Shown: positions 10,623-30,595, counted from the first letter of the stretch. The stretch: 64,000 nucleotides of DNA from Syntrophorhabdaceae bacterium (GCA_963665295.1 OY762209.1:512001-576000), one strand, 5' to 3'. Program-made: numbers and translations. Notes: generated by a model from the sequence alone, not told the origin.

Positions 10623-10639
10623 TTACGGTGTGATTTATT

Positions 10640-11092
10640 TCAATTTTTCTTTTTGACCTCCACCGATTTCACTTTCTCCGGAAAATCGGCATAGAGGGTT
10701 ATGTGCCCGTCATTGTCCTCAGAGATGGTGTACTTATTTCTGATCGTCTCGGATCTTTGGTCGTCTCTGATCTTCCAGAAGATCACTCCCCCGACGAGAA
10801 CCAAAAGGAATGCTACCCCCAAGAGTGCGAGTCGCCATTTCAGGCTGAGTGGTTGCTTGGCCTCTTCGGGAGGAATCTCTACATTGAATCTTTGCTGGTA
10901 CTCCTGTTTGGCGATAGCCGCTTGCCGAATGTAATCTTTTAACGCACTCTCAGTGGTGTAGATTTTGCCCCCGACTTTTTCACCGTACATTTTTCCCTTG
11001 CGTACCAAGAGCCCGAGGTATTCTTGGCTATAGGGAGATAACTTTACCGCCTCACGTAGTGAGATCAATTTTGGTTGTTGCTCGTGTGACAT
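10640..11092 (-). CDS. Xis/MerR-like HTH domain protein with a transmembrane helix
   Basis: N-terminal LISLREAVKLSPYSQEYLGLLVRKGK...GGKIYTT and hydrophobic LALLGVAFLLVLVGGVIFW. Ends 17 bp before the giant gene start. Confidence 0.8.
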   Translation of the reverse strand: MSHEQQPKLISLREAVKLSPYSQEYLGLLVRKGKMYGEKVGGKIYTTESALKDYIRQAAIAKQEYQQRFNVEIPPEEAKQPLSLKWRLALLGVAFLLVLVGGVIFWKIRDDQRSETIRNKYTISEDNDGHITLYADFPEKVKSVEVKKKN

Positions 11093-11387
11093 ATTTGTTT
11101 TTGTTCAACGAGTTTAAAATGCAGCTATATCAAACAGATGGTAGATATGATATCGGACATGTATGGGATACGTATCGGGACGTACCCGACGACCATACAA
11201 AAAAGGACAACCATCTACTAAGATTGTCCAGTCGCCAAACTAGTCGCACTGTTCGAAATGGTTGCCCATCGCTGAGTACGACTAATCGCTAAGCTGCTAA
11301 GCTTGCTAATTTGGCGACTGGAATTTTTCTAATTTAATATTATTATTCTTTTGGATTCTCGTCAAACAGTGAGCCAAATGTCGACTC

Positions 11388-11396
11388 TGTGGATAA
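11388..11396 (-). promoter_or_regulatory. Consensus DnaA box (TTATCCACA)
   Basis: tgtggataa on + strand. Single intergenic copy. Confidence 0.4.
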
Positions 11397-11490
11397 CTTA
11401 AAAAGATCGCCGAAGGGTTCTGGCGGACTCCGATGGCGGCCTGGAACGGTTCGGCGCCAATGTCTCTACTGACGCTGTACAGGCAGATAC

Positions 11491-11530
11491 AAAAAGAGGC
11501 AGAGACTTGCGACATGCAAATCTCTGCCTT
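11491..11530 (-). terminator. Rho-independent terminator after 11541-12284
   Basis: Minus strand aggcagagatttgc-atgtc-gcaagtctctgcct followed by cttttt. Confidence 0.7.
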
Positions 11531-11540
11531 TCAGCCAGCT

Positions 11541-12284
11541 TCAATAGTAATGGATCTCTGCCGGCTGGCAATCAAGGTCCGGAAAACTTGTAGCCAACTT
11601 CCCGTTTCCCTTTTTTTCGTCTTCGACCAGCTTTGAATACTGCGATCCGGTCAAACTGACTTTGACGAGGTACTTACCGTAGAAATGAATCTCCCCGTTA
11701 AGGTTCATATTGCCGATCCTGACCTTCACCTTATCTCCTGAAACTCCAACAGGCGACGAAGTCTTGCTCCAATCGAGTTCAATGAAGCCGACATATTTTC
11801 CGCCAGTTTTCAAGAACTCAACCGAGGAACTATTTATGATAGCTGAATATACTGCCGGTATTGTCTCTATGAAGTCCATGTAATAGAGAACTCCCGTCGC
11901 GTTGTCCTCCCAATATATTCTCACTACCATTTCAGCTCCCGCTTGACTTTCCGGCAACCTAAGCGACTTGCTCAGAATACCGCCCCCTTGAAGATCGGTC
12001 ACTACATCCTCTTTAGAAACTGAGACATCTTGTCCTTGAGCAAACTCGCCATTGAAATACACCTCCCACCTTTTCAGGTTGAAGACTTTATCGATCGTAA
12101 AAGTCACCACTCTCCTATCCTCGTTATTGCCGTAAGGATAGAAGAAATACGTGGTATCCAATGAAGGGCATTCTCCTCCACGCAAACAATGCCCAGGCGC
12201 TGCACTTTCAGGAACCTCTTGGGCGCCCGCAAAATTAAACAACAGCGACATAAAGCAAAATGCAAAAACCGCCTTCTTCAGCAT
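11541..12284 (-). CDS. Hypothetical secreted protein
   Basis: Signal peptide MLKKAVFAFCFMSLLFNFAGA, AGGAGG RBS, 247 aa. Confidence 0.75.
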   Translation of the reverse strand: MLKKAVFAFCFMSLLFNFAGAQEVPESAAPGHCLRGGECPSLDTTYFFYPYGNNEDRRVVTFTIDKVFNLKRWEVYFNGEFAQGQDVSVSKEDVVTDLQGGGILSKSLRLPESQAGAEMVVRIYWEDNATGVLYYMDFIETIPAVYSAIINSSSVEFLKTGGKYVGFIELDWSKTSSPVGVSGDKVKVRIGNMNLNGEIHFYGKYLVKVSLTGSQYSKLVEDEKKGNGKLATSFPDLDCQPAEIHYY

Positions 12285-12480
12285 GACAAACCTCCTTGTA
12301 TAATCAATTTTGTTAGAGTGGCAACGTCACTCTTTTGTCATTCTATCTAATCAGCAGTTATCCCTGTAATATCGATTAGTTGTCAAATAGCTGACTGTCC
12401 AGTGTATAATACAATTGAAATCTGTCAAGTGGCTTGGAGAGAGAACTCCAATTTTGTTGGGGATTTGAATAGAATGATGT

Positions 12481-12783
12481 TTAAGCGTTGCGTTTGGCAA
12501 GGGTTCGAGGAAAAACTTTTTCTTCCAACCTCTCCACTCTATGCTCCAAATCCTTATGATCAAAGACGTGGACCCGGCGGTGTTCCACTTCTGCTTTAAG
12601 GTCCTCAAGCTTATCTTCAATTATGTCAAATCTCCTATCAACTGCGTCAAATCTTTCATTAACTGCCTCAAATCTCTTGTCTACTACCTGGAATTTTTTG
12701 TCCATCTTCTCGTTTATTTCATTAAAACCATTGGCCACCATTCCGGCCAAATCCTCCAAAGTTATTTCTTTGTTTTGTCCCAT
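12481..12783 (-). CDS. Small heptad-repeat coiled-coil protein
   Basis: ITLEDLAGMVANGF followed by (V)DKRF-type heptads. Confidence 0.75.
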   Translation of the reverse strand: MGQNKEITLEDLAGMVANGFNEINEKMDKKFQVVDKRFEAVNERFDAVDRRFDIIEDKLEDLKAEVEHRRVHVFDHKDLEHRVERLEEKVFPRTLAKRNA

Positions 12784-12996
12784 ATGAAGTGTTTTAAGTT
12801 ATGAATAACATTACTATTTTATCATAATCATACATCTCGTCAATTTTCCTATTCATCGCCACACTCATCGCTTCTTTTTCTAATGCCTTCTTCGGCAACA
12901 ATCCCCTTCTTTTGTAATTCTGTGAGTCCTCTAAACTGAAGAAATCCGAACGGAAGTTATTTTGAAAATTTATTGGGACTAAAAGGAGGTGTTCCC

Positions 12997-13143
12997 ATGG
13001 ATTACGAGAAGATGTCCAATGAAGAGCTTGACCAATTGATCTTACAAATGTTTTCCGGACGATATTTCAAGGAGGTGACGGACGACAACCGCGAAACAGC
13101 AATAGCCTTTCTGAAGTTCTTCGAAGAAGAGAAAGGAGGTTAA
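12997..13143 (+). CDS. Small hypothetical protein (48 aa)
   Basis: AGGAGGT RBS; MDYEKMSNEELDQLILQMF...EEKGG. Below the ORF-track cutoff. Confidence 0.65.
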   Translation: MDYEKMSNEELDQLILQMFSGRYFKEVTDDNRETAIAFLKFFEEEKGG

Positions 13144-13145
13144 AG

Positions 13146-13403
13146 ATGTACAGTCCGAAGATTAACGAAGACCTAATCCCCTATCTCTACCGGCTCAGCC
13201 GGCATCTCGGACAGCCAATGACCAGAACGGTGAACTCGATCCTCAAGGAGGCGTTACTCCATTTCAAGGACACCGGAATATTCTCGGAAATCGAAGCGGA
13301 AGAGAAAGCTCTCGAAGAGCTGACCGCCTACTTCAGAAAAGTCACGAGTGGCAGGAAGAAGAAGACCGCCCAGGTTATCGAGCTTCTCAGAAAAATCGCA
13401 TAG
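13146..13403 (+). CDS. Hypothetical protein, possibly ribbon-helix-helix-like N-terminus
   Basis: AGGAGGT RBS; MYSPKINEDLIPYLYRLS...MTRTVNSIL. Confidence 0.7.
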   Translation: MYSPKINEDLIPYLYRLSRHLGQPMTRTVNSILKEALLHFKDTGIFSEIEAEEKALEELTAYFRKVTSGRKKKTAQVIELLRKIA

Positions 13404-13409
13404 GAGGTG
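13352..13409 (+). repeat. 58 bp imperfect direct repeat, copy 1
   Basis: caggaagaagaagaccgcccaggtt...aaaatcgcataggaggtg; 51/58 identical to 13777-13834. Confidence 0.9.
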
Positions 13410-13413
13410 TGAG

Positions 13414-13776
13414 GTGATCACTATCACCAGGGAAGAAGTGGAAAGAATCTTTTCGATCTCCACTCATCAAGTGGAAGTGGTGGAGGCGCTTTACCGGCTC
13501 GCGTTCCCAGATTACGACGAGATCATGAAGCTTGACGGTTTCCCGGAAGCGGGAGAGAAACTCTCCAAGCTCATCTGGAACAAGTTTTTTGATTTCGATG
13601 AAAAGCATCACCCGAACGTGATGAAGGGCGGAAGATGGATGAACAACGGCTTCTCAACCAACAAGAAACTTGGCGATTGGGAAGTTGATGTTGCCGGAGT
13701 GAAGAAGATTATGAAGGAGAAAGAGAGTCCGCTTTTCCGGAATTTCTATCGCTGTGCGCAGGACGGTACGCGGTGA
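13414..13776 (+). CDS. Hypothetical phage/ICE protein
   Basis: GTG after GGAGG; 120 aa; lies exactly between the two 58 bp repeats. Confidence 0.7.
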   Translation: MITITREEVERIFSISTHQVEVVEALYRLAFPDYDEIMKLDGFPEAGEKLSKLIWNKFFDFDEKHHPNVMKGGRWMNNGFSTNKKLGDWEVDVAGVKKIMKEKESPLFRNFYRCAQDGTR

Positions 13777-13834
13777 CAGGAAGAAGAAGACCGCCCAGGT
13801 TGTCCAATCTCTCAACAAAATCGCATAGGAGGTG
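13777..13834 (+). repeat. 58 bp imperfect direct repeat, copy 2
   Basis: See copy 1. Supplies the RBS for 13839. Confidence 0.9.
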
Positions 13835-13838
13835 AATC

Positions 13839-14057
13839 ATGAAAAAGCGCCGCCGTCAGAAGCCCAAGAAACTCATATGGATATTGGGCGCAGTATCCTT
13901 ATTTCTTCTCGCCGTTATCGCGTTCGGTACGACGATGATATCGTACTCGCTACACGAGATTCTTGTAACCGCTCAGGAAAATATCGCTTCATACGAACCC
14001 GAACACAAGGAACCCACCAAATTCAAAAGCATAGGAGGAATGAAATGGAAGAAATGA
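13839..14057 (+). CDS. Small membrane protein
   Basis: Basic N-terminus plus hydrophobic helix; GGAGG RBS. Confidence 0.6.
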   Translation: MKKRRRQKPKKLIWILGAVSLFLLAVIAFGTTMISYSLHEILVTAQENIASYEPEHKEPTKFKSIGGMKWKK

Positions 14058-14782
14058 TTATTCATCGGGGAGGAGAGATCGTTACCCGAGAACAGCTTGA
14101 CCTTATCAAGGTGCCGGATGCCACCGATTCATACATCCCGGTATCGCACTACCATCTGGCCGACAAACTGGTCGGCATATCGAAGGATATTCTCCGCGAT
14201 TACGTTTTGGTCGGAGAAAACTACGCCGTGGCCCGGCAGGGGAACCAGATGTTCGCGGCGCTCAAGTTCCAGCGGGACGAGTCGGACATGGCGCTCTCTA
14301 TCGCCTTCCGGAATTCTTACGACCGCTCGATGAGTCTCGGGATCGCTATCGGCGCTTCGGTCTTCGTCTGCGATAACTTGGCCCTTCAGGGCGACATCGT
14401 CATCATGAGGAAGCACACCAAGAATGTCTGGAACGAACTCGAAGATTTGGCGATTGCGACGCTCTACAAATCCCAGAAGACCTTTGAGCAGATCGTGGCC
14501 GACGCGGCCCTGCTCAAGAAGCAGCGCCTCAAGAACGACGAGGCGTTCATGTTCATGGGGATGCTCTTCGGCTATCACATCGTGAGCCCGAGACAACTCT
14601 CGATCCTCAAGGAAGAATGGCTTAGGCCGTCGCATACCGAATTCGAGGAAAGGAACATGTGGTCACTCTTTAACGCGACAACCGAAAGTCTCAAGAGCTG
14701 TCCGCCCGTCACCATCATGGAAAAGCACGGTCAGGCGTACAACCTGCTCACGCAAGGCAAATACCCGGCGCTCACCGCGTAA
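14045..14782 (+). CDS. DUF932-like protein
   Basis: AGGAGG RBS before ATG 14045; FRNSYDRS...GASVFVCDNL and WSLFNATTE motifs. Confidence 0.8.
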   Translation: MEEMIIHRGGEIVTREQLDLIKVPDATDSYIPVSHYHLADKLVGISKDILRDYVLVGENYAVARQGNQMFAALKFQRDESDMALSIAFRNSYDRSMSLGIAIGASVFVCDNLALQGDIVIMRKHTKNVWNELEDLAIATLYKSQKTFEQIVADAALLKKQRLKNDEAFMFMGMLFGYHIVSPRQLSILKEEWLRPSHTEFEERNMWSLFNATTESLKSCPPVTIMEKHGQAYNLLTQGKYPALTA

Positions 14783-14812
14783 TCCGATTTCTCGAAATTT
14801 AAGGAGGCCGTC

Positions 14813-15220
14813 ATGATCGTATCACGGGAAAGGGCGGAACTTTCTTCGCCCGCAGCAGCGGCAGGCCTCCTTAGGAAACTTCTCCGAAAGGAAGACTGCC
14901 TATCGAAAGACAGAGAGCATTTCTGGGTCATCACGCTCAATACCAGAAACCGGGTAAGGTTTGTGGAACTCATAAGCCTTGGGACGATGAACACCAGCGT
15001 CGTAGCCCCGAGAGAGATCTTCCGAAGGGCCATAATCAGGGGAGCGTCCTCGATCATACTGGGACACAACCATCCTTCGGGAAACCCTGAGCCCAGCCAA
15101 GAGGATTTGGAGATTACCAGAAGGATTGTGGAAGCCGGAAAGATCGTCGGGATCGAGGTGGTCGACCATATCATCATCGGCAAAAGCGATTATTCCTTCA
15201 AAGAAAAGGGGCTCATTTAG
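14813..15220 (+). CDS. radC: RadC-like JAB domain protein
   Basis: DREHF...PREIF...HNHPSG.PEPS.ED...DHIII motifs. Confidence 0.92.
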   Translation: MIVSRERAELSSPAAAAGLLRKLLRKEDCLSKDREHFWVITLNTRNRVRFVELISLGTMNTSVVAPREIFRRAIIRGASSIILGHNHPSGNPEPSQEDLEITRRIVEAGKIVGIEVVDHIIIGKSDYSFKEKGLI

Positions 15221-15229
15221 GAAAACAAT

Positions 15230-15424
15230 ATGGAAAAGAAAACACCCGTTATCAAGAAGAAAATACTCACTACCAAAGACCTTGCGCTCCTCTTGGTGGG
15301 AACCACCATCAAGCTGGACTGCGGGCATGAGGCTACCATTGGACATAACTTCGCCAATACGGTAATTATCTTGTCCGAGGGCGGAGGAAAGATTAAGACC
15401 CTCTGCCATAATTGCGGATATTAG
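15230..15424 (+). CDS. Small Cys/His protein (putative Zn binding)
   Basis: LDCGH and CHNC motifs; co-oriented in the operon. Confidence 0.6.
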   Translation: MEKKTPVIKKKILTTKDLALLLVGTTIKLDCGHEATIGHNFANTVIILSEGGGKIKTLCHNCGY

Positions 15425-15433
15425 GAGGAAGAG

Positions 15434-15583
15434 ATGTTTGTCATTCTCAGTTGATTGGATCATTCAGACATCGGCCTTATCCTCCACCAGGACGGAAAGG
15501 TCCGGCTGTTTGAGACCCACGCCGAAGCGGAGAGCTTCGCGGAGTCGGAGCTTGCCGCGAATTGGCAAATCATTGAATTGTAA
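15434..15583 (+). pseudogene. Small gene with in-frame TGA at codon 7
   Basis: AGGAGG RBS; MFVILS*LDHSDIGLILHQDGKVRLFETHAEAESFAESELAANWQIIEL. Confidence 0.5.
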
Positions 15584-15751
15584 TTTTGGGGGAAGAACCG
15601 AAACCGGATCTTCCCCTCTCATTTTGCCCAAAGCATACCTGAATAAGCACCTGATCTGATGCATAGACATATTACCCATCCCTTTTGGCCCGATAGAATC
15701 AACTGCCAGTCGCCGAATTTCTTGAAATCGGCTTAAACAAGTAATTAATTT

Positions 15752-15882
15752 GGGGGAGAAGCATTTTCTGTGGTCCGTCGGCGAAGCACGACAGAACCCC
15801 AGCGCAGGGCTTTAACCGCAAAAGCAAAACAATGACGGTATAAACCCCTGCGCTGGGCTTCGCCACAGAAAAGCATCCCCCC
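15752..15882. other. ~130 bp nested inverted repeat (candidate oriT/origin or structured RNA)
   Basis: Arms ttttctgtgg/ccacagaaaa, ggcgaagc/gcttcgcc and cccagcgcaggg/ccctgcgctggg around an A-rich loop. Confidence 0.6.
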
Positions 15883-15895
15883 GTATTTTTGATTT

Positions 15896-16570
15896 ATGAT
15901 ACTCAGTAGAGCAACCATCCGGGAGTTCATTTCCAAAATGGAATGGGCCACCGCCGCCAACATCTGCTTTCTCCTTTCCGGAAAGAGGAAGCGGAGAGAC
16001 TACGCCATTGTCGCCGCCGAACTTAACAGCATGTGCCGGACCAAGCGCAAGGAAATCCGTCTTAAAAAACTCAACCACGAATTCTATACCTGCTATGCTC
16101 TGGCCACCAATCCGAGAACAACCCTCAACCACAACCATGTCGAACACGACATCAAGCTCCGGAGCTGTTTGGGAAGATACTTCTATCTTTGCGGCCATGG
16201 ACTCATGGAATACCTCTCCATCGAAACCTTTGCCGACGCGGTCCTCAAGCTCAGTACCGGAGACCTGTATTTCGAATTCGACAGCGGACATATGGGAAGG
16301 AAGCAACTCAAGACCAAGATTATGACGCATTACACAGGCAAAGGAGCCTTCAGAGTTGTCTTCTGGACAGGGACCGCCGAATACGCCCACTGGAAGAACG
16401 CGGCAACGATTAAATGCCTGGAACGGAACCGTCTCAACCTGTTATTTCAAATCACGAGAAAGGTACTCAGGGAGAAACCGAACCGGGTGTTGGGGGCTTC
16501 GTATCACGACTATCTGGAAACCGGGAGACTGCATACCCAGAAAGGGTCCTCCATTTGGACCAATGAGTGA
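15896..16570 (+). CDS. Divergent replication-relaxation (PF13814-like) protein
   Basis: wHTH-like N-terminus, HxxEHD, then ADAVL...YFEFDSGHM...KI..HY...RVVF (PD-(D/E)xK-like core). Confidence 0.65.
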   Translation: MILSRATIREFISKMEWATAANICFLLSGKRKRRDYAIVAAELNSMCRTKRKEIRLKKLNHEFYTCYALATNPRTTLNHNHVEHDIKLRSCLGRYFYLCGHGLMEYLSIETFADAVLKLSTGDLYFEFDSGHMGRKQLKTKIMTHYTGKGAFRVVFWTGTAEYAHWKNAATIKCLERNRLNLLFQITRKVLREKPNRVLGASYHDYLETGRLHTQKGSSIWTNE

Positions 16571-16827
16571 AATCGTCCTACTGCTCTCAACTGTGACTAC
16601 GAACCAGATGGAGTAGTCGTCGGTAACGGCTTTTGAATGAAAGCCGGAAACACCGCCTAACTCAATAGAGGGAGGCTATGCGAAATGCTGATGGTGACGT
16701 GACTAAGCTGGCGACGGGTCGGGCTCTCTCGGTTTCACGCGACGGGTCCGGTCTTAAAGGACGAAACGTTTCGTTCCCCTCTCGGCCATAATGGTCGGGA
16801 GGGGACAAACCCTTGCGAATAATGAAT

Positions 16828-17403
16828 TCAGTCAACCTTTGTGGTTACAAGTTTCCTGATGAATGACATGAGATCATCGTAGTCTTTCCTTCTCTTACCA
16901 TATAAATCCTCGTAAATCAAAATCTCGGAAAAAGCCGAAAACGCCGCACCAGCTCTCATAAATTCCTTCAGCTTTTCACTACTCAGATTATCAATGTATT
17001 CCTCGTAATCAGAAATTTCGGGGTAAGGCAGATCCTTGATAGCAGCGACGAAAGAGCCTCCAAAATACATATTGAAGGCCCATAGTTTCCAAGTGTTCCG
17101 GCATTCAATTTTGTATCTGTCGTATGCTTCGATTATTCCCAAAAACCAGTCAATAATGGGCGCATCGGCATCAATTTCCCTTTTGAGGCAATCGACGAGA
17201 TACACCATGCTCAGCCATTCAATGAATTCAATCACGGTTCCCCTGAAGTTGATTTTGTCTTTATCCTTGTATGCGCTCTGGACCAGTGATTTGTTGGCGA
17301 AGGCTTTATCAACTGTCGGGTCTTCTAAGATCGGGGTTGAGGCTACCGCTTGGATAACATTGTAATACCTGCCATACATCTCATGTATGAGTTTTCTCTC
17401 CAT
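16828..17403 (-). CDS. Hypothetical protein
   Basis: 191 aa, GGAGG RBS, own consensus promoter. Confidence 0.75.
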   Translation of the reverse strand: MERKLIHEMYGRYYNVIQAVASTPILEDPTVDKAFANKSLVQSAYKDKDKINFRGTVIEFIEWLSMVYLVDCLKREIDADAPIIDWFLGIIEAYDRYKIECRNTWKLWAFNMYFGGSFVAAIKDLPYPEISDYEEYIDNLSSEKLKEFMRAGAAFSAFSEILIYEDLYGKRRKDYDDLMSFIRKLVTTKVD

Positions 17404-17436
17404 TGTCCACCCTCCGGATCAATTTGCAAAAAGATA

Positions 17437-17464
17437 ATTATATACCGTACGTATTAAATGTCAA
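17437..17464 (-). promoter_or_regulatory. Sigma70-type promoter TTGACA-N16-TATAAT
   Basis: tgtcaa at 17459-17464 and attata at 17437-17442. Confidence 0.6.
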
Positions 17465-17528
17465 CCAGAAATTGTAGACAGCTAACTGCCGAAAAGAGAA
17501 CAATAAGCGCCTTTACTGAATTATTGTC

Positions 17529-17557
17529 TTGACAAAGATTCTTATTGTATAGATAAT
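17529..17557 (+). promoter_or_regulatory. Sigma70-type promoter TTGACA-N17-GATAAT (divergent)
   Basis: ttgaca at 17529-17534 and gataat at 17552-17557. Confidence 0.55.
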
Positions 17558-17649
17558 AGTGTATAGTATTATTTTAACATTATTAAGTGTAGGGGCCACA
17601 GCGGATTCGATTAGAGCGCCGATTCCATCGGCAAACGCAGGTGCAAAAG

Positions 17650-17880
17650 ATGAAGGCGGAGAAGAGAACAGAGATCATGAAGACTCTGGAATTTTTAAAA
17701 GTAGCAGAGCCGCTCACCATCGGAGCAGCCATCAAAAAACTCTACCAGGAGAATTTTGTCTACAGGAATGAAGCATCAATCATCAACAACGACCGAACCG
17801 GTAATGTTAACCCTCCTCTCAAACTACTGATAGCAGGCAGCCAAAATCTTCCGCCAACAGGCAAGACTTTGGCTGCGTAG
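17650..17880 (+). CDS. Hypothetical protein
   Basis: Short ORF downstream of the promoter; no recognisable motif. Confidence 0.4.
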   Translation: MKAEKRTEIMKTLEFLKVAEPLTIGAAIKKLYQENFVYRNEASIINNDRTGNVNPPLKLLIAGSQNLPPTGKTLAA

Positions 17881-18006
17881 GTCCCTATAAACCACTCCTT
17901 GCCTTTATTGCGGAAAAGCTCTCAGCAATTGCCGCTTTCACGCAGTATCGACCAGGAAACATTTAATATCCTCAACACCATAATAAAAAGATAGGAGGTG
18001 TCCCTT

Positions 18007-18222
18007 ATGTCGCGCTGGTGGCATGCTAACGAAATCGCAAAAGAATACAATCGTACTCGCCGCACCATCTACCGCTGGCTTGAAGAAGGATATATCAAAG
18101 GCAAAAAGATAAAGAGCAACTGGCTCGTCCCTGACGAAGAGGTCAAAAAGATAATAAGGGACCCCGATGATGACGGGAGCGATCCCAGCTTTAACAAGCC
18201 TTCACCAGATTCAACTACGTAG
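18007..18222 (+). CDS. Excisionase-like HTH protein
   Basis: AGGAGG RBS; ANEIAKEY...TIYRWLEEG.IKG.KI...WLVP. Confidence 0.85.
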   Translation: MSRWWHANEIAKEYNRTRRTIYRWLEEGYIKGKKIKSNWLVPDEEVKKIIRDPDDDGSDPSFNKPSPDSTT

Positions 18223-18236
18223 CAATACTCGCCGTT

Positions 18237-18278
18237 AGCCCCCCAGCCCCCATTTGCAAGGGACTGGGGGGCTTTTTT
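18237..18278 (+). terminator. Rho-independent terminator
   Basis: agccccccag...ctggggggct followed by a T run. Confidence 0.75.
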
Positions 18279-18325
18279 GTCGAACGTACCACCAAACCTT
18301 CGCAACGTTTAGAAAAACTTTTGTG

Positions 18326-18355
18326 CGACACCCTACGACACCCTACGACAACCTT
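18326..18355 (+). repeat. 10 bp tandem repeat x3
   Basis: cgacacccta cgacacccta cgacaacctt, upstream of speD. Confidence 0.8.
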
Positions 18356-18417
18356 CCTGGTAACCGCATTATCCTCGTGGGAAAATCTCACATAGAAACA
18401 CTCTCAAGGAGGACGAC

Positions 18418-18837
18418 ATGGACTCACTTGTACACGAAACAAATGGAAGACTGGTTATGCTCGACCTTTGGGGATGCGATTTTGAGACGCTCAATAATTT
18501 CGCATCTCTTTCGAGTGAGGCAAAAGTGGCAGCCGAAAAGGCGGGAATGAATGTTCTCGCAATTTCCGTTGTGCCTTTTGTGCCGCAGGGGTACAGCATA
18601 GTCTTGACTCTAAGTGAATCACACCTCACTATCCACACCTCTCCCGAACAGGGGTATGCGGCTATCGACGTCTTCACCTGCGGGCACGGAAAACCTCACG
18701 TTGCCGCGAACCATTTACTGGCAATTCTCAAACCCGGCCAGATTCTTGCGAAAGTAATCCAAAGAGGGGAGCAGGCTCCGGCAGGCGCAGAGGGCTTTAA
18801 TGGAAATTTTCAGTCCGGGAGCACCCGCCATGCTTAG
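18418..18837 (+). CDS. speD: S-adenosylmethionine decarboxylase proenzyme (pyruvoyl-dependent family)
   Basis: PQGYS...LSESHLTIHTSPEQGYAAIDVFTCG (ESH self-cleavage site); AGGAGG RBS. Confidence 0.9.
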   Translation: MDSLVHETNGRLVMLDLWGCDFETLNNFASLSSEAKVAAEKAGMNVLAISVVPFVPQGYSIVLTLSESHLTIHTSPEQGYAAIDVFTCGHGKPHVAANHLLAILKPGQILAKVIQRGEQAPAGAEGFNGNFQSGSTRHA

Positions 18838-19399
18838 TGGCCAACTCACTCGCTTGAGACCTCTGGAAGATAAGGACTTTGCCTACTACTACTCGTGCAT
18901 GGACAATCCCGACTTGGCCGGAGTTGTCTTGGGAGACGCAGTCCCCTCTCCAAGGGAACTGACCAAGAAGCTGCTTCAAAAACAGGACGACCTCCTCCTT
19001 ACGGTAGAAACCTTATCGGGTACGCCAGTAGGTTTTTGCTTTCTCCGCAACATGCACCCCATTCACCGCTTTGCCGAGCTTGAACAATTCTTTATCGGAA
19101 ATCCCAGAGACCGCCGTCGTGGACACGGAGAAGATGCCATCCGGACGCTCACTCGCTACTGCTTTAGCATCCTCGGACTCAATCGAGTCTGGCTCATAAC
19201 CTATGCTTACAACTTCTCTGCAATACGCTTCTATGAAAAATGCGGTTTCTCGAAAGAAGGCGTGCTCAGACAGATTCAATTCACAGGAAGGGAGTATCAT
19301 GACGGGGTCACCATGGCCATCTTGCAGCAGGACTGGATTGCTATGCATAAAAGACACCGGTCACCGCACGAACCATCACCGATTGGGGTATCCCGTTGA
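18830..19399 (+). CDS. GNAT N-acetyltransferase (RimJ/RimL/SpeG-like)
   Basis: LRPLE...RRRGHGEDAI...LGLNRV.L...N..AIRFYEKCGF.KEG.LR. Overlaps the speD stop. Confidence 0.9.
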   Translation: MLSGQLTRLRPLEDKDFAYYYSCMDNPDLAGVVLGDAVPSPRELTKKLLQKQDDLLLTVETLSGTPVGFCFLRNMHPIHRFAELEQFFIGNPRDRRRGHGEDAIRTLTRYCFSILGLNRVWLITYAYNFSAIRFYEKCGFSKEGVLRQIQFTGREYHDGVTMAILQQDWIAMHKRHRSPHEPSPIGVSR

Positions 19400-19812
19400 C
19401 GGATCAGCAAATCAACCTTTTTCGATCCAAGCAGTCGGACGATTGGGCCACCCCCAAGTGGCTCTACGACCAACTTGACGCGGAATTCCATTTTGACCTC
19501 GACCCTTGTCCCCTCAACCCTACCTTTGACGGGCTTAAAATCCCCTGGTGCGGAAACGTGTATGTAAACCCTCCGTACAGCAGGGTCCGCGAATTTCTCG
19601 CCAAAGCCCACGAGGAACTTAGGGCCGGACGAGCCCGGACGGTCGTGTTCCTGGTGTTCGCGAACACTGATACGGATTGGTTTCACACCTATGTCTACCA
19701 TCAGGCTGAGATTCGATTCCTTAGAGGCCGGATCAAATTTGTGGCCCCGGGCAAGAACAACTCCGCCATGCGGCCAAGCATGCTCGTTATCTTCAGAAAC
19801 AGAATCTCCTAA
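19396..19812 (+). CDS. Phage-type DNA N6-adenine methyltransferase (Dam, PF05869-like), short
   Basis: DDWATP...FDLDPC...DGL..PW..VYVNPPYS...TDTDWF...IRFLRGRIKF. TTGA overlap with the GNAT stop. Confidence 0.88.
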   Translation: MTDQQINLFRSKQSDDWATPKWLYDQLDAEFHFDLDPCPLNPTFDGLKIPWCGNVYVNPPYSRVREFLAKAHEELRAGRARTVVFLVFANTDTDWFHTYVYHQAEIRFLRGRIKFVAPGKNNSAMRPSMLVIFRNRIS

Positions 19813-19961
19813 TCACCGAAAAGAACATTCCCAAAACACGGCTGACGAAACATTTTTTGAAAGGTCGTATGACACCGAGGATCATTGTGTTCCATCGTGA
19901 TATTCACGCCCAGACCGTCCCTGTGGGACAATCTAATCATAAACAGACAGAGGAGGTGCCC

Positions 19962-20531
19962 ATGGAGATTTCAAGAAATGCTTATCCGTACCAGACACTG
20001 GCGATTTTCATCGACTACCACAACTTCGAGGCTTCTTTGAGGGACGAGGGCCTGCAGGTAGACCTCTTGCCCTTGAGGGAGTACCTGGCCGGAGGCAGGC
20101 AACTGCTGGAGACATTCGTGTTTGTCGGCTTCAACCCCAACAACGCTCACGAAGACGGACAGCTCCATCGGTTCTTGCGAGTGAACGGTTTTCTCGTACG
20201 GACTAAGCTGGCCAAGGTAAGGCCTGATGGTTCCTTGAAATGTGATCTCGATATCGAGATGGCTTTGTCTGTGGTCGATTACGTGACTCGGAACAGACTG
20301 GACACCGTGCTCCTCGTGACTGGCGACGGGGACTTCTCTCCCCTTGCCTCGTGGCTCCGGATGAGAGGCGTCCGGGTAGAAGTGGCTTCGCTAGAACGCA
20401 GTATGTCCCATGAGCTTAAGGAGTCGGCAAACGGCTACATTGACCTCCGTGAAGCCATCGAAGAAATCGAGGCAGGACGGGGAGAACTCATAAGAGAGGA
20501 GGTGAGAACCTATGGCAACGGCAATTATTAA
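19962..20531 (+). CDS. NYN (LabA/DUF88, PIN-like) domain protein
   Basis: IFIDYHN, KCDLDIEMA, LVTGDGDF.PL, GVRVEV, S.ELKESA..YIDL; AGGAGG RBS before ATG 19962. Confidence 0.9.
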   Translation: MEISRNAYPYQTLAIFIDYHNFEASLRDEGLQVDLLPLREYLAGGRQLLETFVFVGFNPNNAHEDGQLHRFLRVNGFLVRTKLAKVRPDGSLKCDLDIEMALSVVDYVTRNRLDTVLLVTGDGDFSPLASWLRMRGVRVEVASLERSMSHELKESANGYIDLREAIEEIEAGRGELIREEVRTYGNGNY

Positions 20532-20718
20532 TGGACGGCGGGTTGACATTCCCTCCACGGCAACGGATGACGATATTCGTCAGGCCGGAGGAATTCGTCC
20601 CGAGAGGACCCTCATCAAACGGGAGAGGCACGGGAACTTCGTGATCCAGCGCGGGTCAAGGACGAATGTCAAAGAAGGTGATGTGTTTGTTGATTCACCG
20701 AAAAGGATCAAGGGTTAA
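20512..20718 (+). CDS. Putative ubiquitin-like (beta-grasp) protein ending in Gly
   Basis: 68 aa; IINGRRVDI...VKEGDVFV pattern; C-terminus RIKG; GGAGG RBS; sits immediately before the E2 and E1 genes. Confidence 0.75.
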   Translation: MATAIINGRRVDIPSTATDDDIRQAGGIRPERTLIKRERHGNFVIQRGSRTNVKEGDVFVDSPKRIKG

Positions 20719-20770
20719 ATCACAACGGAGGGCCGGGCAACCCTGGCCCTCCCCTTAAAGGAGGAGACGT

Positions 20771-21298
20771 ATGGCAGAATTTTTGAATTCGTTGTTCAGA
20801 GGATTATTCGGCAGTCCGTCTGAAGCACCCCGGCAGGACACTGCGTTACCCGGAAGACATCCGGTCCGTTCCATCCGGAACGAAAGGCTTCTCAATGAGA
20901 TCATGATGATCGCCCCGAGATTCAGCCAGAACGGAGGGGTGTACTACGACGAGCACAACTTCGACTGGATCATGATTCCCAAGTACGCCCTGCCGGAACG
21001 GTGGGAGGAGAGATGGTGTAAGCTCCTTATTATACCCCCCGCAGGCTATCCGAGCATGCCTCCTATCGGCTTTTATCTCAACCAAAAATTTCACCTCAAA
21101 ACGGGTGGCCACGACCCTCACAACACCAGCACCGCTTACCATGGGGCACCCGACCTTCTGCATAGTGGCTGGCACTGGTACTGCGTTACCGTGGCAGACG
21201 GGCCGGGCGGCTGGCAGCCATCGGTCGATTACCGCGAAAAGGACAATCTCTGGACGTTTCTTAATATGGCCAGAGAAACCCTTACCAACGACTTTTGA
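20771..21298 (+). CDS. Prokaryotic E2/UBC-like protein
   Basis: YALPERW...LLIIPPAGYPSMPPIGFYL...GWHWYCV...W.P...DNLWTFL. Confidence 0.8.
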   Translation: MAEFLNSLFRGLFGSPSEAPRQDTALPGRHPVRSIRNERLLNEIMMIAPRFSQNGGVYYDEHNFDWIMIPKYALPERWEERWCKLLIIPPAGYPSMPPIGFYLNQKFHLKTGGHDPHNTSTAYHGAPDLLHSGWHWYCVTVADGPGGWQPSVDYREKDNLWTFLNMARETLTNDF

Positions 21299-21309
21299 AG
21301 GAGGCACAA

Positions 21310-22809
21310 ATGAAATACAGGATCATTCTCACCAAAGGCATGGCGGAGGAGTTGAAGAAGCACCTCCTTACAGACCGACGCAAGGAACAGATGGCTGTCA
21401 CCTTGTGCGGAGTGAACCGCCTCAAGAACGAAACCAGATTACTCGCCAGACACCTCATACTCTTTCCACCCGAGGCGTTCCAAACCCAGTCTTCGGCCTA
21501 CCTCGAACTGGACCAGGGGGTCCAGCGTCAGATTCTTGGATTGGCCGCAGCGGAAGGGCTGTCGCAGATTGATTGGCACAGTCACCCCGGCGACACATCG
21601 TGCATCGGCTTTTCCGGCGTTGACAACCACAATGAAAGTAAGCTCGCGGCCTACCTTCACGAAAAGATCCCCGGTACACTCTACGGGTCCGTGGTAGTGA
21701 ACCGGAACGTCTTCGACGCCAGGATTTGGCAGGTCGAAAAAGAAAGTATCCAGACAAGACCCGTAGAATCGGTTCGGTGGGGGGACTTCAACGATGCAAG
21801 CCCTGTCTCTTCCAGAGGCGCCAGGCCCGAGGCAATCGAGGAACAGTACTCCCGGCAGGTAGCCGCTTTCGGAAGCGTCTTGCAGACGAGGTTGAGGAAA
21901 TGCAAAATCGGGGTCATCGGGGTTGGCGGTTTGGGAGCGGTCGTTGTAGAAATGCTGTCAAGACTTGGCTCTGACACCTGGATGCTTGTGGACGACGATG
22001 TCGTCGAAATCAGCAACCTTAACCGCCTTCCCGGATCGTCCCGCAGAGACGCCTATTACCGGACTTTAAAGGTCAATGTCGCTCAAAGGAATATCACGAA
22101 AGCCAATCCTTACGCCGCCATTACGGTTTTGCCTTTAAGTGTCACAAATGAGAGGGTCGTCCAGTCCCTCAAGTCTTGCGACCTTTTGGTTGTAGCCACA
22201 GACAACAACAGCAGCCGTCTTATCGCCAATCGCCTCGCCGTGCAATATCTCATTCCCCTTATTCACATCGGCGTCAACATCGACGTGGACGATAACAGGA
22301 CCATAACCGACATGAGCGGAGAGTACGTGTTTCCGCCTCTAGGCGAGTGGTGCCTTCACTGCGCCGGGATCATTGATGGTCAGATGGCCGGATGGGAATT
22401 GGCGGATGAAGGGTTGAGGAGTGTGCTTCGGGAGCGGGGATATGTGAAAGACACACCGGCCCCGGCGGTCTATCATCTGAACACCGTGATGGCCGCCCTC
22501 GCGGTGGCGGAGATACACAACTTTGTCTCCTCTTACAAGCCCGTCCGGCGTTACCTTACCTACGATGAACTCAAAGGAGAGCTTCTGCCTCTTGAAGTCT
22601 CGAATGAACTTCGCTGCCCGGTGTGCGACAACGAAGAGGGATATCTCGGCCTTGGGGACCTAGAGCCCTTGCCGGATTATACGGGGAGGACAAGAACGAT
22701 GCCAAGTACCGATGCGTTTGACGGAGACGGAGAGATGCGCATTTTGCCGGTCAACAATCCCGACAATTCCAACGAAGTTGAGCTTGTGGTCAAAGAGGAG
22801 ACCTTGTGA
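21310..22809 (+). CDS. JAB/MPN peptidase - ThiF/E1 adenylyltransferase fusion
   Basis: N-terminal E...HSHP...FSGVD (JAMM). C-terminal GVGGLG, DDDVVEISNLNR, ATDN, and CLHC/CPVC Zn sites. Confidence 0.9.
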   Translation: MKYRIILTKGMAEELKKHLLTDRRKEQMAVTLCGVNRLKNETRLLARHLILFPPEAFQTQSSAYLELDQGVQRQILGLAAAEGLSQIDWHSHPGDTSCIGFSGVDNHNESKLAAYLHEKIPGTLYGSVVVNRNVFDARIWQVEKESIQTRPVESVRWGDFNDASPVSSRGARPEAIEEQYSRQVAAFGSVLQTRLRKCKIGVIGVGGLGAVVVEMLSRLGSDTWMLVDDDVVEISNLNRLPGSSRRDAYYRTLKVNVAQRNITKANPYAAITVLPLSVTNERVVQSLKSCDLLVVATDNNSSRLIANRLAVQYLIPLIHIGVNIDVDDNRTITDMSGEYVFPPLGEWCLHCAGIIDGQMAGWELADEGLRSVLRERGYVKDTPAPAVYHLNTVMAALAVAEIHNFVSSYKPVRRYLTYDELKGELLPLEVSNELRCPVCDNEEGYLGLGDLEPLPDYTGRTRTMPSTDAFDGDGEMRILPVNNPDNSNEVELVVKEETL

Positions 22810-24302
22810 TATTCGAGATGCTCGAAAACGCTGTCATCAGAGGTCTCAATTCTCTCACCTCGCCTAAGCGGGTGAAGAAATCGAGGGAGCCCTCCCGGAT
22901 ACTCATCGGGAGGGCCGCCCACCCTTATCATCCGGAACACTGGGAAGAAATATCGCTCGACGTCGAAAACCTTCTCCGTCACCTGTACTGCTTGGGCGGT
23001 ACGGGCATGGGTAAGACGAAACTGCTGGAGTTTATTATCCAACGTATAATCCTCGCCCACCACGGTTTTGCCCTTATCGATCCGCACGGCGATCTTACGG
23101 AGAACATCATCAATTTTCTCTGTCACAACAAGACTCAATTCGAGATAGACGAATTGGGAGAGCGGGTCATCCTCATTGAACCCTTCGACCGGGAATGGGC
23201 CATCGGATTCAACCCCTTGGACTCGGATGAACCATTCGCCGCGTCTCTCGGTCTCGTGGATATCTTCCGCCAATTTTGGGGCGACAGTTATCGGGGACCG
23301 AGGATGGACGAGCTTCTCAGGAACAGTCTCGCGACCCTCTCTGAGAACAAGCTGACCCTTCTTGAGACAAGACCTTTACTCACCCATCCAGAATTCAGAG
23401 CAAGGCTCGTTAAGAACGTGTCCTTCGGCGAAGTGCGGGATTACTGGAATCATCGGTATAATCCTCTTTCGGAAAAAATGCAGGCCATGTACCGGGAACC
23501 CGTGCTCAACAAAATCACCGCATTCATAACGGACCCGACCATTTACCGAATTCTATGCCAGACAGAAAGCACGGTGAATTTCCGTCGGGCCATGGATCAA
23601 GGGAAATGGATTCTCCTCAATCTCAGCAAAGGACATCTGGGCGAGAACGTGAGGCTTCTCGGTACCCTGTTTCTTTCCAAGCTCAAACAAGCCGCGTTCT
23701 CCAGAATCGATATACCGGAAGAGAGCAGACGTCCGTTCTTCGTCTTTGCCGACGAATTTCAGAGCTTCATGGGGGATGCGGGGACAATTGAAACAGTACT
23801 CTCAGAAAGCAGAAAATTCCGTTTGGCCATTTTTATGGCAAATCAGAATTTGGGGCAGATACCTGCGCAGCTGCGATCAGCCATTTTAGGGAATGTTGGA
23901 GTGGAAATTTTCTTCCGTCTCTCCAACCAGGACAGCGTTTTAGTCTCTTCGGAAATGAGCCACGGCGACAAGCATCTCATCGAAAAGCGGCTGATCGATT
24001 TCAAGGTTGGAGAAGCGTATCTCAAGGTCAAGGGCCAGAAAGCGCGGCTCTTTAAGACTATCCATGTGCCTTCGCTCAGAGTTCCGGAAAGAATGATTGA
24101 ACCACTGAGGGTAGCCTCTTTCCGGAACTGGGCCGCGCCGGTCAGCAAAGTGGAGGAAGAGATCGCGGAGCGGAGAGGAATGTGGGAAGAGAGCGGGATA
24201 GACAACGATTGCTCCCCAAGGGAAACGCAAGGGGCAATTGTAAGGACCGATGATGTTCTTCCTGTCCGCGACTCCTTCGAGGAAGGACAAAGTGAATGGT
24301 GA
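22806..24302 (+). CDS. VirD4/TraD/HerA-like coupling ATPase
   Basis: Walker A GGTGMGKT, IDPHGD, Walker B FFVFADEFQ, ESRKF...NQ...ILGNVG..IFFR. GTGA overlap with the E1 stop. Confidence 0.85.
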   Translation: MIFEMLENAVIRGLNSLTSPKRVKKSREPSRILIGRAAHPYHPEHWEEISLDVENLLRHLYCLGGTGMGKTKLLEFIIQRIILAHHGFALIDPHGDLTENIINFLCHNKTQFEIDELGERVILIEPFDREWAIGFNPLDSDEPFAASLGLVDIFRQFWGDSYRGPRMDELLRNSLATLSENKLTLLETRPLLTHPEFRARLVKNVSFGEVRDYWNHRYNPLSEKMQAMYREPVLNKITAFITDPTIYRILCQTESTVNFRRAMDQGKWILLNLSKGHLGENVRLLGTLFLSKLKQAAFSRIDIPEESRRPFFVFADEFQSFMGDAGTIETVLSESRKFRLAIFMANQNLGQIPAQLRSAILGNVGVEIFFRLSNQDSVLVSSEMSHGDKHLIEKRLIDFKVGEAYLKVKGQKARLFKTIHVPSLRVPERMIEPLRVASFRNWAAPVSKVEEEIAERRGMWEESGIDNDCSPRETQGAIVRTDDVLPVRDSFEEGQSEW

Positions 24303-25155
24303 GACCAGAACCAGTAAGTGGCAGAGGACCAAAAATCCGAAGCCCATCTTTCTTCAGGAAAGAGATCAGGAGATAGTCGCCAGGGTCTATGACTTTGGCT
24401 TCCTCACCAGGCAACAAATACAGCGCCTCATTGATTTCAACTGTACAACCAGGGCCAACATACGACTCCGGAAGCTTTTTGATCACGGTTACCTTTTAAG
24501 GCGATTTCTTCCGGTAGTAAAAGGATCATCTCAGGCTCTGTACTTCCTGGGTCCCAAGGGCATAGACCTTGTCTCGGAAAGAACGGGAATCGATGCGGCT
24601 TTAATCAAGAAAAGGCAGGGGAACCATTACGAGCGCAAGGAGTTGTTCCTTGACCATGATCTTCTTCTCAATGATGTGAGGATCGGCGTCTATGATGCTT
24701 TGAAGAAATCTCCCGGCACGGAACTTGACCATTGGGTGAATTACACCGATTGTCTTCAGGAGTGGAATGTCCTCAATCCGAAATCGGGCCGCCAAAACAA
24801 AGTGGCCCTCAGACCTGACGGATATTTCCGCTACTTCTCTGCAGACAAGCTCTTCGGATGTTTTGTGGAGGTGGACAGATCCACTATGAGCAACAGCCGG
24901 TTTCAGTCCAAGGTGAAGCTGTATCTTGAATATATCCGCTCGGGACTCTATCCGGCAAAATTCGGGCTCCAATTCTTCCGGGTTTTGGTAGTGACTGAAA
25001 CAAGGCAGCGCCTTCTTAATCTCAAGTCAGCCACTGAGCAACTCACCGACAAGGTATTCTGGTTCGCGCTGGCCAACAACCTCGTGGAGGGAAATGTCTT
25101 CGAGTCCATCTGGGCGAGACCGGGCAAACCGGGAACCTTCAGTCTGCTGGAGTGA
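24292..25155 (+). CDS. Replication-relaxation family protein
   Basis: LQERD...FLTRQQI...RLRKL...HDL...RPDG...FVEVDRST...KVKLY...FRVLVVT. Probable GTG start at 24292. Confidence 0.85.
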   Translation: MNGETRTSKWQRTKNPKPIFLQERDQEIVARVYDFGFLTRQQIQRLIDFNCTTRANIRLRKLFDHGYLLRRFLPVVKGSSQALYFLGPKGIDLVSERTGIDAALIKKRQGNHYERKELFLDHDLLLNDVRIGVYDALKKSPGTELDHWVNYTDCLQEWNVLNPKSGRQNKVALRPDGYFRYFSADKLFGCFVEVDRSTMSNSRFQSKVKLYLEYIRSGLYPAKFGLQFFRVLVVTETRQRLLNLKSATEQLTDKVFWFALANNLVEGNVFESIWARPGKPGTFSLLE

Positions 25156-25158
25156 GTC

Positions 25159-25617
25159 GTGAGATATTGCCCCCGCTGCCATCACTTCAATCCGGGCAAT
25201 CTCCCGATCTGCCATTTCTGCGGAGCCACCTGGTATGTAAGGCTCTGCCCGAGAGGTCATGAGAATCCCCCAAGCGCCCAATATTGCGGGACATGCGGAT
25301 CAACGGATTTGAGTGAGACGGCGGGCCGCCGACCATGGCTTTTGATTGCCTTTAAATTATTCCTGTGGCTCCTCGTCGGTCTCTTCGTTTACTCACTAGT
25401 CTTTGGCGCTGGCCCCATTTCAGGCAGTCAAATCTTTGCCTATATCTTCTCTCTCGCCTTTCCCCTCTGCCTCCTCCTTGTTGGCCTCTGGCTTCTGCTC
25501 TCGCTTCTGCCGAAGTCTGTAGGGCAGTCAGTTCGCAAGCTGATGAGGCATGTGCTGAGGCTGGCTGGCTTGGCAGCATGGGGTTTGTTGAAGCTGATAT
25601 GGAGGATATTGAAATGA
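25159..25617 (+). CDS. Double zinc-ribbon membrane protein
   Basis: CPRC, CHFC, CPRGH, CGTC followed by hydrophobic helices. Confidence 0.8.
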   Translation: MRYCPRCHHFNPGNLPICHFCGATWYVRLCPRGHENPPSAQYCGTCGSTDLSETAGRRPWLLIAFKLFLWLLVGLFVYSLVFGAGPISGSQIFAYIFSLAFPLCLLLVGLWLLLSLLPKSVGQSVRKLMRHVLRLAGLAAWGLLKLIWRILK

Positions 25618-25693
25618 CAATGAGTCGGGAGCGCGGCTCTGGTCCTTCGGGGTCCCAAGTCCTTGATTTGAATTATAAATCGGTCGAAACCCA

Positions 25694-25745
25694 TAGTGCA
25701 GTCGGAAAACCACCCGTTGCACTATCCGTTGCACTACCTGCACTA
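25694..25745. repeat. TGCACTA motif cluster (3 direct, 1 inverted)
   Basis: tagtgca at 25694; tgcacta at 25718, 25730 and 25739; upstream of the xis-int genes. Confidence 0.65.
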
Positions 25746-25842
25746 TCCCGCACAGGATGGCATTGCCGGGAACGGCAACAATGCCCGTCTTTGCGGGCGG
25801 GCTGCGCCCGGCTACTATGGAAGAAAGGAAAGGAGGAGGATC

Positions 25843-26196
25843 ATGGAATTCTTGACGGTTGACGAGATTGCACGGATGCTCAAAGCGAGTCGCGAGTTCG
25901 TTTACAAAAACAGGAGCCTCTTCGGAGGCATCAAAGTGGGAAGGCTCGTGAGATTTCCAAAAATAATTTTTGAGAAGATAATCGAGGAGGTGATAGGAAG
26001 TGGTGGAGAAACACGGCAACAAGTGGAGGTACGATTTTCTGAAGGACGGGACGAGGTACAGAGCGGGAGGATTCAGGAGCAAAGCCGAAGCTATCGAAGC
26101 CGAGGCAAGAGCAAGAGCAGGAGCAAAATCGATAAATACGGACTTGCTAAAGCTTATGAACTCAAGGCTGGAGGATATCCAGATTCGGAGGACTAA
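25843..26196 (+). CDS. Excisionase-like HTH protein
   Basis: AGGAGG RBS; MEFLTVDEIARMLK.S...VY...IKVGRLVRF. Overlaps the integrase start. Confidence 0.8.
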   Translation: MEFLTVDEIARMLKASREFVYKNRSLFGGIKVGRLVRFPKIIFEKIIEEVIGSGGETRQQVEVRFSEGRDEVQSGRIQEQSRSYRSRGKSKSRSKIDKYGLAKAYELKAGGYPDSED

Positions 26197-26344
26197 ACTC
26201 CATTTCTGGGAAAACAACAAACTATTCAAAGAACTGATGCAGCGTTGGGGGAACCTCCCCAAGATAACCACAGATGATGTGGAAAAATATCTTAACGAAA
26301 TAGCCAAGAAGTCTAAGCCTATGGCAAACAAATATCTTAGACTA

Positions 26345-30562: not shown

Positions 30563-30583
30563 TTCCCCCAAAATTTCCCCCAA
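30563..30583. repeat. TTCCCCCAA direct repeat x2, candidate integrase arm-type sites
   Basis: Copies at 30563 and 30575, just inside the tRNA-side junction. Confidence 0.45.
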
Positions 30584-30595
30584 GACTAAAAGAAA

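Follow-up and report, generated by a model that had tools for sequence, protein, structure and literature searches.

The product of a pyruvoyl decarboxylase has a free primary amine, and such amines are capped by SpeG-like acetyltransferases of the GNAT superfamily. Phages encode working S-adenosylmethionine (SAM) decarboxylases (AdoMetDC or SpeD) as well as spermidine acetyltransferases (PMC9992855). One confirmed spermidine acetyltransferase is a 177-aa protein of SPBc2, which may or may not be YokL (PMC9992855). In Klebsiella, SpeD that is unopposed by the spermidine synthase SpeE raised the entry of plasmids past SAM-dependent restriction-modification (R-M). The effect was gone if speD was deleted or metK was overexpressed (SAM levels were inferred in that study), and a SAM-depleted donor protects plasmids less well (PMC12456054). 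Orphan SpeDs in genomes that lack SpeE often proved to be arginine or ornithine decarboxylases, and the arginine decarboxylases are hard to distinguish from AdoMetDC by sequence (PMC10407285). Finally, the orphan methylase M.Phi93DAM, from Lactococcus phage phi93, makes Gm6ATC by itself and protects against DpnII (PMC4190342).

We analysed a stretch of 64,000 nucleotides (the window) from a Syntrophorhabdaceae bacterium (GCA_963665295.1, OY762209.1:512001-576000). In this window, genes for a SpeD, a GNAT, and an N6-adenine methyltransferase (MTase) follow each other on one strand (Table 1). A sequence-only reading had taken the three for a coupled module, in which the MTase might use decarboxylated SAM (dcSAM) to aminopropylate adenine and the GNAT might acetylate the product. 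We find that it is SpeD and the GNAT, as a pair, that are conserved together, a point which that reading missed. The pair is real, is borne by mobile elements, and is uncharacterised: we found no earlier description of it in the literature searched, whose reach did not extend to key papers from the Aravind and Ealick groups.

Table 1. Features of the window around the SpeD-GNAT pair, numbered from the first nucleotide of the window.
Feature	Position	Strand	Description
Terminator-like hairpin	18237-18279	+	GC-rich inverted repeat and T-run, 3' of the upstream HTH gene
SpeD	18418-18837	+	139 aa; class 1b SpeD/AdoMetDC-fold pyruvoyl decarboxylase, distinct element-borne clade
GNAT	18830-19399	+	189 aa from ATG; RimJ/RimL/SpeG-like, distinct clade
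MTase	19396-19812	+	138 aa, TTG start; probable phage-type orphan N6-adenine methyltransferase, full length
Cargo 3' of the MTase	19962-22809	+	NYN nuclease, small ubiquitin-like ORF, Prok-E2_E, JAB-E1
Element backbone	22806-25617	+	VirD4/TrwB-like ATPase, Replic_Relax relaxase, double zinc ribbon protein
Tyrosine integrase region	26000-30669		split by two transposase-like ORFs; tRNA-Arg follows

The three open reading frames do overlap at their stop/start junctions, as had been stated, by 8 nt (SpeD/GNAT) and by 4 nt (GNAT/MTase, TTGA). Read-derived contigs from two runs cover positions 12000-26370 of the window with zero differences, and these runs may be the source samples themselves. We considered gene overlap as a sign of coupling and rejected it. 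From speD through the zinc-ribbon gene, 5 of 9 junctions overlap, the unrelated JAB-E1/VirD4 junction among them, and a crude ORF call for the whole genome gave overlaps of 1-8 nt for 326 of 2437 same-strand neighbours.

Upstream of these genes, the hairpin is likely a terminator that sets the HTH gene apart from the speD operon. We found no promoter-like site immediately 5' of speD. About 70-90 nt 5' of speD there is a direct repeat (CGACACCCTA twice, plus a partial third copy, at 18326-18352), which was not seen in the related loci that we aligned. We saw no conserved DNA element 5' of speD or 3' of GNAT in the aligned loci either. Farther away, divergent near-consensus promoter sites of the sigma-70 type (17437-17557; 12/12 and 11/12) precede a 191-aa minus-strand ORF and the HTH region.

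Several pieces of evidence show that SpeD and the GNAT are found together. First, a profile of the GNAT identified five metagenome loci (L092-L096; L094 and L095 are near copies). A clade SpeD lies directly 5' of the GNAT in four of the five, and the fifth is truncated on that side. The speD/GNAT overlap is present in every locus that shows both genes. A search of genome contigs with the SpeD alignment gave only general, housekeeping SpeDs (38-49% identity), which then served as a control. None of 80 such loci has a GNAT or a PF05869-type methylase within 500 nt, and 8 of them have a GNAT elsewhere in the locus. Near distant GNATs, we found SpeD in 0 of 53 loci (1 of 54 without the anchor).

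Second, the distances among the SpeDs and among the GNATs co-vary (Mantel rho 0.65, p 0.0002). This comparison used 10 pairs, 4 of them seen in DNA and 6 inferred from equal contig sizes. The SpeD clade has 11 relatives at 53-76% identity and is a single branch (SH-aLRT 95), and the GNAT clade has 19 relatives at 45-60%.

Third, source contigs of the same size recur in the SpeD and GNAT lists: 8 sizes are common to both (15 x 25 values), as compared to 1 match with 114 control values. For one pair, the accessions are consecutive (MCX5909678/MCX5909677). A predicted complex of a SpeD dimer with the GNAT had a score of 0.24 (mark 0.32), which we do not count as evidence.

The pair is carried by elements with VirD4, relaxase, and integrase genes, and the window, L092, and L093 have this backbone in common. 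In L092, the GNAT is followed directly by NYN-Ubl-E2-JAB/E1-VirD4-relaxase, which is the order in the window minus the methylase. L093 combines the pair with VirD4, relaxase, and integrase genes, and its cargo is different: an NYN gene is present and Ubl/E2/JAB genes are absent. (Behind the pair in L093, at 10627-13709, are a 555-aa membrane protein with no family match, a 142-aa ORF, and a radical SAM protein.) In L094-L096, a different small run of Ubl-like, E2-like, and JAB-like genes, as judged by eye, lies 3' of the GNAT (L094:2501-2661, L095:796-1187, and L096:511-1262). Two ORFs of the run in L096 have no match in Pfam or NCBIfam. Searches of phage and plasmid collections found distant homologs only, and single-protein scans of viral contigs with SpeD, GNAT, or relaxase gave no matches.

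The MTase is a later addition in one sub-lineage, by the simplest account. It follows the GNAT in none of the five related loci, and in L093 there is no PF05869-type gene within 10 kb on either side of the pair. The coupled triplet of the sequence-only reading is confined to one sub-branch of the GNATs. The three genes do recur together in other genomes, as that reading would require, but the pair does not depend on the methylase. In Syntrophorhabdus sp. PtaU1.Bin002, a single 35,067-nt contig encodes SpeD (OPY73638.1) and Dam (OPY73636.1); the intervening accession was not seen. Further members of the triplet are tied together by equal contig sizes (2798 and 4768). Six GNATs that we labelled as methylase-linked form one branch (96/94) inside the GNAT clade, with labels that come from DNA (1), equal contig size (2), cluster membership (1), or a similar C-terminal tail (2). 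In a tree of 50 MTases, the 15 closest sequences and one further sequence also form one branch (97/95), nested among phage-type enzymes. These trees are most simply explained if a phage methylase was acquired once and placed between GNAT and NYN.

As a protein, the MTase resembles ordinary phage orphans. It matches PF05869 over its full length (81.1, cut-off 28.1), belongs to phrog_111, and matches PADLOC's orphan methylase model PDLC03726 over positions 5-139 of 140; its score for TIGR01712 is below the cut-off (61.7 vs. 97.05). The sequence-only reading had called 138 aa short, but the median length of its homologs (the best 120 of 340) is 139 aa, and the PADLOC model has 140 positions, so we rejected length as a sign of an altered methylase. 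NPPY at motif IV is intact, as in 119 of these 120 homologs. At the columns where at least 70% of 114 distant homologs agree, the sole change is Y56 for F. The MTase is 44% identical over its whole length to M.Phi93DAM (Phi93_04; 140 aa), which also has NPPY, although the M.Phi93DAM gene is in a phage packaging region and the MTase gene is on an integrative element. Neither SpeD nor GNAT is near close homologs of the MTase in any of seven viral loci. We conclude that the MTase is likely an orphan m6A DNA methylase that is independent of the pair.

Could the MTase nevertheless place the aminopropyl group of dcSAM on the N6 of adenine, with the GNAT acetylating it to give a DNA mark? The triplet does recur in the sub-lineage, it has been retained over a divergence of the GNATs to about 52-60% identity, and a different phage family pairs SpeD with an amino-methylase (see below). 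We nevertheless consider this relay very improbable. The pair occurs without an adjacent methylase in all five related loci. The MTase keeps NPPY and FDLDPC, as do phage orphans with no SpeD nearby, and its SAM loop has no acidic change, in contrast to the SpeD-associated FAGD methylases. M.Phi93DAM makes m6A alone (PMC4190342). The aminopropylation of adenine that the sequence-only reading had proposed for this full-length enzyme, with its one changed column, therefore finds no backing at this locus, and we did not find an acetylated N6-aminopropyl-adenine mark in the literature searched.

DNA aminopropylation is far more plausible for the phage family just mentioned, which lies outside the window. 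In Croceibacter phage P2559S, a ParB-amino-methylase fusion (phrog_498) overlaps a short SpeD on its 5' side (P2559S_66/67; L157:3167-4808), and this SpeD is a confirmed AdoMetDC (PMC9992855). Such a fusion lies within 500 nt of SpeD in 71 of 80 viral loci (L158-L237, the best 80 of 99). Motif IV reads CPPY in every one of the 63 unique full-length methylases, and their SAM loops carry FAGD with at least 90% conservation. Conversely, SpeD is present in the locus for 67 of 72 copies with FAGD (from the best 80 of at least 523 loci, 76 unique; L263-L341). There is no SpeD near the FSGG pair L302/L303 or near the FAGG homologs of phages B054 and phiFL3A; this control is small, consists of related sequences, and covers 900-nt flanks for B054 and phiFL3A. 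Because CPPY is common to SpeD-less homologs, only the Asp of FAGD tracks SpeD. In aminopropyltransferases, an acidic residue at this spot allows dcSAM to be preferred.

These sequence patterns make dcSAM-dependent DNA aminopropylation by the ParB-methylase and SpeD a serious possibility, if somewhat short of an even chance. We found no prior report of this module in the literature searched, which did not reach Iyer 2013, and the excerpt of PMC4738411 does not mention a decarboxylase. The phage family is widespread, and in it SpeD is tied to an amino-methylase whose SAM-binding loop is altered. It may be the more important lead: natural DNA aminopropylation could be tested directly with it.

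To return to the pair, the substrate of its SpeD is most likely SAM, with real doubt. The protein scores 104.7 bits against TIGR03330 (cut-off 75.65), also matches PF02675, and shares the fold of the class 1b enzyme from Thermotoga (1vr7/1tlu; Foldseek match to 1vr7 with E = 1.9e-11 and an rmsd of 1.5). It also shares the ES cleavage site and the His and Cys processing residues: Ser68, His73, and Cys88 correspond to Thermotoga S63, H68, and C83 (PMC10407285). The Gln/Thr/Phe/Tyr pattern of the ornithine decarboxylases known as SpeDC (QLIETS...GHF; PMC10407285, supplement) is absent, and the sequence there is LTLSESHLTIHT. Pro56 and Pro76 are both kept; these are candidates for the AdoMetDC-conserved proline that is lost in the SpeDA arginine decarboxylases (PMC10407285).

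Unlike other class 1b SpeDs, the members of this clade mostly have Ser, Ala, or Thr at the position of Thermotoga Trp70. The window SpeD has Ser75 there in place of the family's typical aromatic residue, which presumably stacks on the adenine of SAM. The position is Ser in all 12 rows of our alignment A1, and Tyr in one clade member (P0185). It is W or Y in 79 of the 80 general speD loci and W, Y, or F in 135 of 150 library representatives (7 were unmatched by the pattern). Three confirmed phage AdoMetDCs have W, F, and W (PMC9992855), and three SpeDs outside the clade have Ser. The clade also has Pro at the Arg48 position. In two members the Glu before the cleavage serine is altered (Gln in P0181 and Thr in P0182), which suggests further drift of the active site. 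SAM is uncertain as the substrate because the conserved aromatic residue is mostly Ser in the clade and because orphan SpeDs have so often proved to be arginine or ornithine decarboxylases.

The pair could instead be a two-step module for another substrate (arginine, lysine, a signal derived from SAM such as SAM-AMP, or a 3-amino-3-carboxypropyl group), with the GNAT acetylating the amine and the methylase independent. We regard this as doubtful but worth taking seriously. It would account for the clade-wide loss of the aromatic residue and for the Pro at the Arg48 position. Like the SpeDA and SpeDC offshoots, the window SpeD is an orphan whose genome has no SpeE, and an orphan SpeD in a host with carboxynorspermidine decarboxylase (CASDC) is just what was screened for when SpeD-derived arginine and ornithine decarboxylases were found (PMC10407285); the difficulty of separating arginine decarboxylases by sequence also applies. 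On the other hand, the ornithine decarboxylase pattern is absent and the two prolines close to the active site are retained. Also, P0185 keeps Tyr, Ser occurs in three SpeDs outside the clade, and none of the loci has polyamine pathway genes beside the pair.

The genome is 98% complete, and the window SpeD is its sole SpeD. The sequence-only reading had noted that the window has no spermidine synthase. This was correct, and there is no canonical one in the whole genome: two PF01564 proteins score 112 and 47 against TIGR00417 (cut-off 249.55). Both are membrane-fused, and their glycine loops read GGGAGG and GGGGYT. (Canonical SpeE has an acidic residue at the glycine loop.) A carboxynorspermidine decarboxylase does score above its cut-off, so the CASDC route is present.

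The GNAT is, by sequence, a member of the RimJ/RimL/SpeG group. It matches PF13302 and PF00583, and its score for the SpeG model NF011709 is 64.9, as compared to a cut-off of 218. Among solved structures, its best profile matches are 6erd and SpeG proteins (E about 1e-22). Its structural neighbours are a mixture of small-molecule and protein acetyltransferases (6erd, Z = 21.9; PseH, Z = 20.6; S. aureus 5ix3, Z = 19.0), and the ESM Atlas gave generic GNAT clusters only. It is in the same subfamily as SpeG and the phage spermidine N-acetyltransferases (PMC9992855). Unlike SpeG, it is always paired with a decarboxylase and it lacks the acidic WFEEPYE segment. Because this segment is missing, its substrate need not be spermidine.

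These observations bear on another explanation, which is that the pair tunes polyamines: SpeD would feed dcSAM to a membrane-fused, SpeE-like host protein, and the GNAT would be a spermidine acetyltransferase as on phages. The phage enzymes (PMC9992855), the two host PF01564 proteins, and a weak match of the GNAT to SPBc2 YokL (34% identity over 42% of the query) are in keeping with this. But the host proteins are far under the SpeE cut-offs and have the glycine loops given above, the GNAT is without SpeG's acidic segment, and making spermidine while inactivating it would be contradictory. Polyamine tuning seems distinctly unlikely.

Our preferred reading, which we hold tentatively, is that the pair is a sink for SAM that works against SAM-dependent restriction, beside a separate orphan m6A methylase. 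SpeD would remove the carboxyl group of SAM, or of a close SAM-like molecule, and the GNAT would cap the freed aminopropyl amine to give N-acetyl-dcSAM. We infer that this would be a one-way sink, and that acetylation of dcSAM would prevent it from inhibiting methyltransferases. On entry into a new cell, the sink may blunt type I and type III R-M and BREX, with the orphan methylase acting independently of the pair. The substrate, product, timing, and anti-defence role of the pair are all conjectural in this scheme. SAM to dcSAM to N-acetyl-dcSAM seems the most economical path because an amine is freed, the GNAT is of an amine-capping type, and there is no aminopropyltransferase. In a host that lacks a canonical spermidine synthase, dcSAM would have nowhere to go.

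In support of the sink, the two genes are adjacent on a shared backbone, no SpeE scores above the cut-off while the CASDC route is present, the ornithine decarboxylase pattern is absent, and both prolines are kept. The plasmid entry seen with unopposed SpeD in Klebsiella (PMC12456054) points the same way. The solved sequence relatives nearest to the GNAT include SpeG proteins, which acetylate the amines of polyamines. The loss of the Trp70 aromatic argues against it, as do the Glu changes in P0181 and P0182, the frequent arginine or ornithine specificity of orphan SpeDs (PMC10407285), and the GNAT's low score for SpeG and mixed structural neighbours. Also, the sub-lineage that gained the methylase would compete with its own SAM sink, plasmids from a SAM-depleted donor are less well protected (PMC12456054), and the island described below itself encodes methylase/restriction-like genes, which are SAM users. 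A similar idea in the sequence-only reading, with SpeD as a SAM drain and the MTase as separate protection, is plausible and has a genetic precedent (PMC12456054), but is weakened by the Trp-to-Ser change in the clade.

The proposed outcome, less SAM and weaker SAM-dependent restriction or BREX, is like that for the SAM lyase of phage T3, but the pair's fold and chemistry differ. SAM depletion and weaker restriction were also proposed for Klebsiella SpeD, although that effect came from host mutants and not from a module encoded by an element (PMC12456054). If the pair is a SAM sink, then mobile DNA could disarm SAM-dependent immunity by a second enzymatic means that has no relation to the phage SAM lyases, and N-acetyl-dcSAM would be a new end product. 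If the substrate is not SAM, then SpeD would be another neofunctionalised pyruvoyl decarboxylase, with a dedicated partner.

The pair's surroundings raise a further alternative, which is that it serves the host, or the maintenance of the element, and not anti-defence. It might be an anti-phage effector that depletes a metabolite, together with the NYN/ubiquitin cassette, or a metabolic toxin-antitoxin system in which the decarboxylase would make a toxic amine and the GNAT would detoxify it. The pair adjoins Ubl-E2-JAB genes in the window, L092, L094/L095, and L096; the island is rich in defence-like genes; and speD and GNAT overlap wherever both are seen. However, the L093 pair has NYN without Ubl/E2/JAB genes, and neither SpeD nor GNAT matches anything in PADLOC. 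We consider such a role unlikely.

The element ends at a tRNA gene. After the zinc-ribbon protein come an HTH protein and then the interrupted tyrosine integrase, up to tRNA-Arg. A 43-nt copy of the tRNA-Arg end, at genome positions 474681-474723, marks the boundary of an island of about 68 kb. Its GC content is lower and, by eye, it has many defence-like ORFs. The transposase-like ORFs within the integrase are at 26519-27880 and 28367-30061, and because they split it, the element may be immobilised. (Contig depth is several-fold higher at the split integrase, which is consistent with multi-copy insertion sequences.) We looked for the GNAT clade in 95 further genomes of the class and in 400 sampled from the phylum (E <= 1e-40) and found it in none of them, and we therefore view these genes as sporadic mobile cargo. 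The DNA of the window was not found in 60 relatives, nor was the relaxase in 95 genomes. The island is modestly depleted of GATC (0.73-0.76, as compared to 0.93 for the whole genome), which says nothing about the methylase's target.

The part of the island to the left of the window (genome 474681-512000) has integrases, a RuvC-like gene, and several ORFs that look defence-like by eye: a helicase/methylase/restriction-like set, a HerA-like pair, a short Argonaute pair, and an AbiE-like pair. Also inside the island is a 4646-aa ORF with a repetitive body (genome 508682-522622, reaching window position 10622, minus strand). It is preceded by small genes at window positions 10640-12783, which we take to resemble genes of CPR bacteria. 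Elsewhere in the genome, a 39-nt match to the tRNA-Arg end (3233514-3233552), about 90 kb from a tRNA-Arg at 3323880, suggests a second integrated element.
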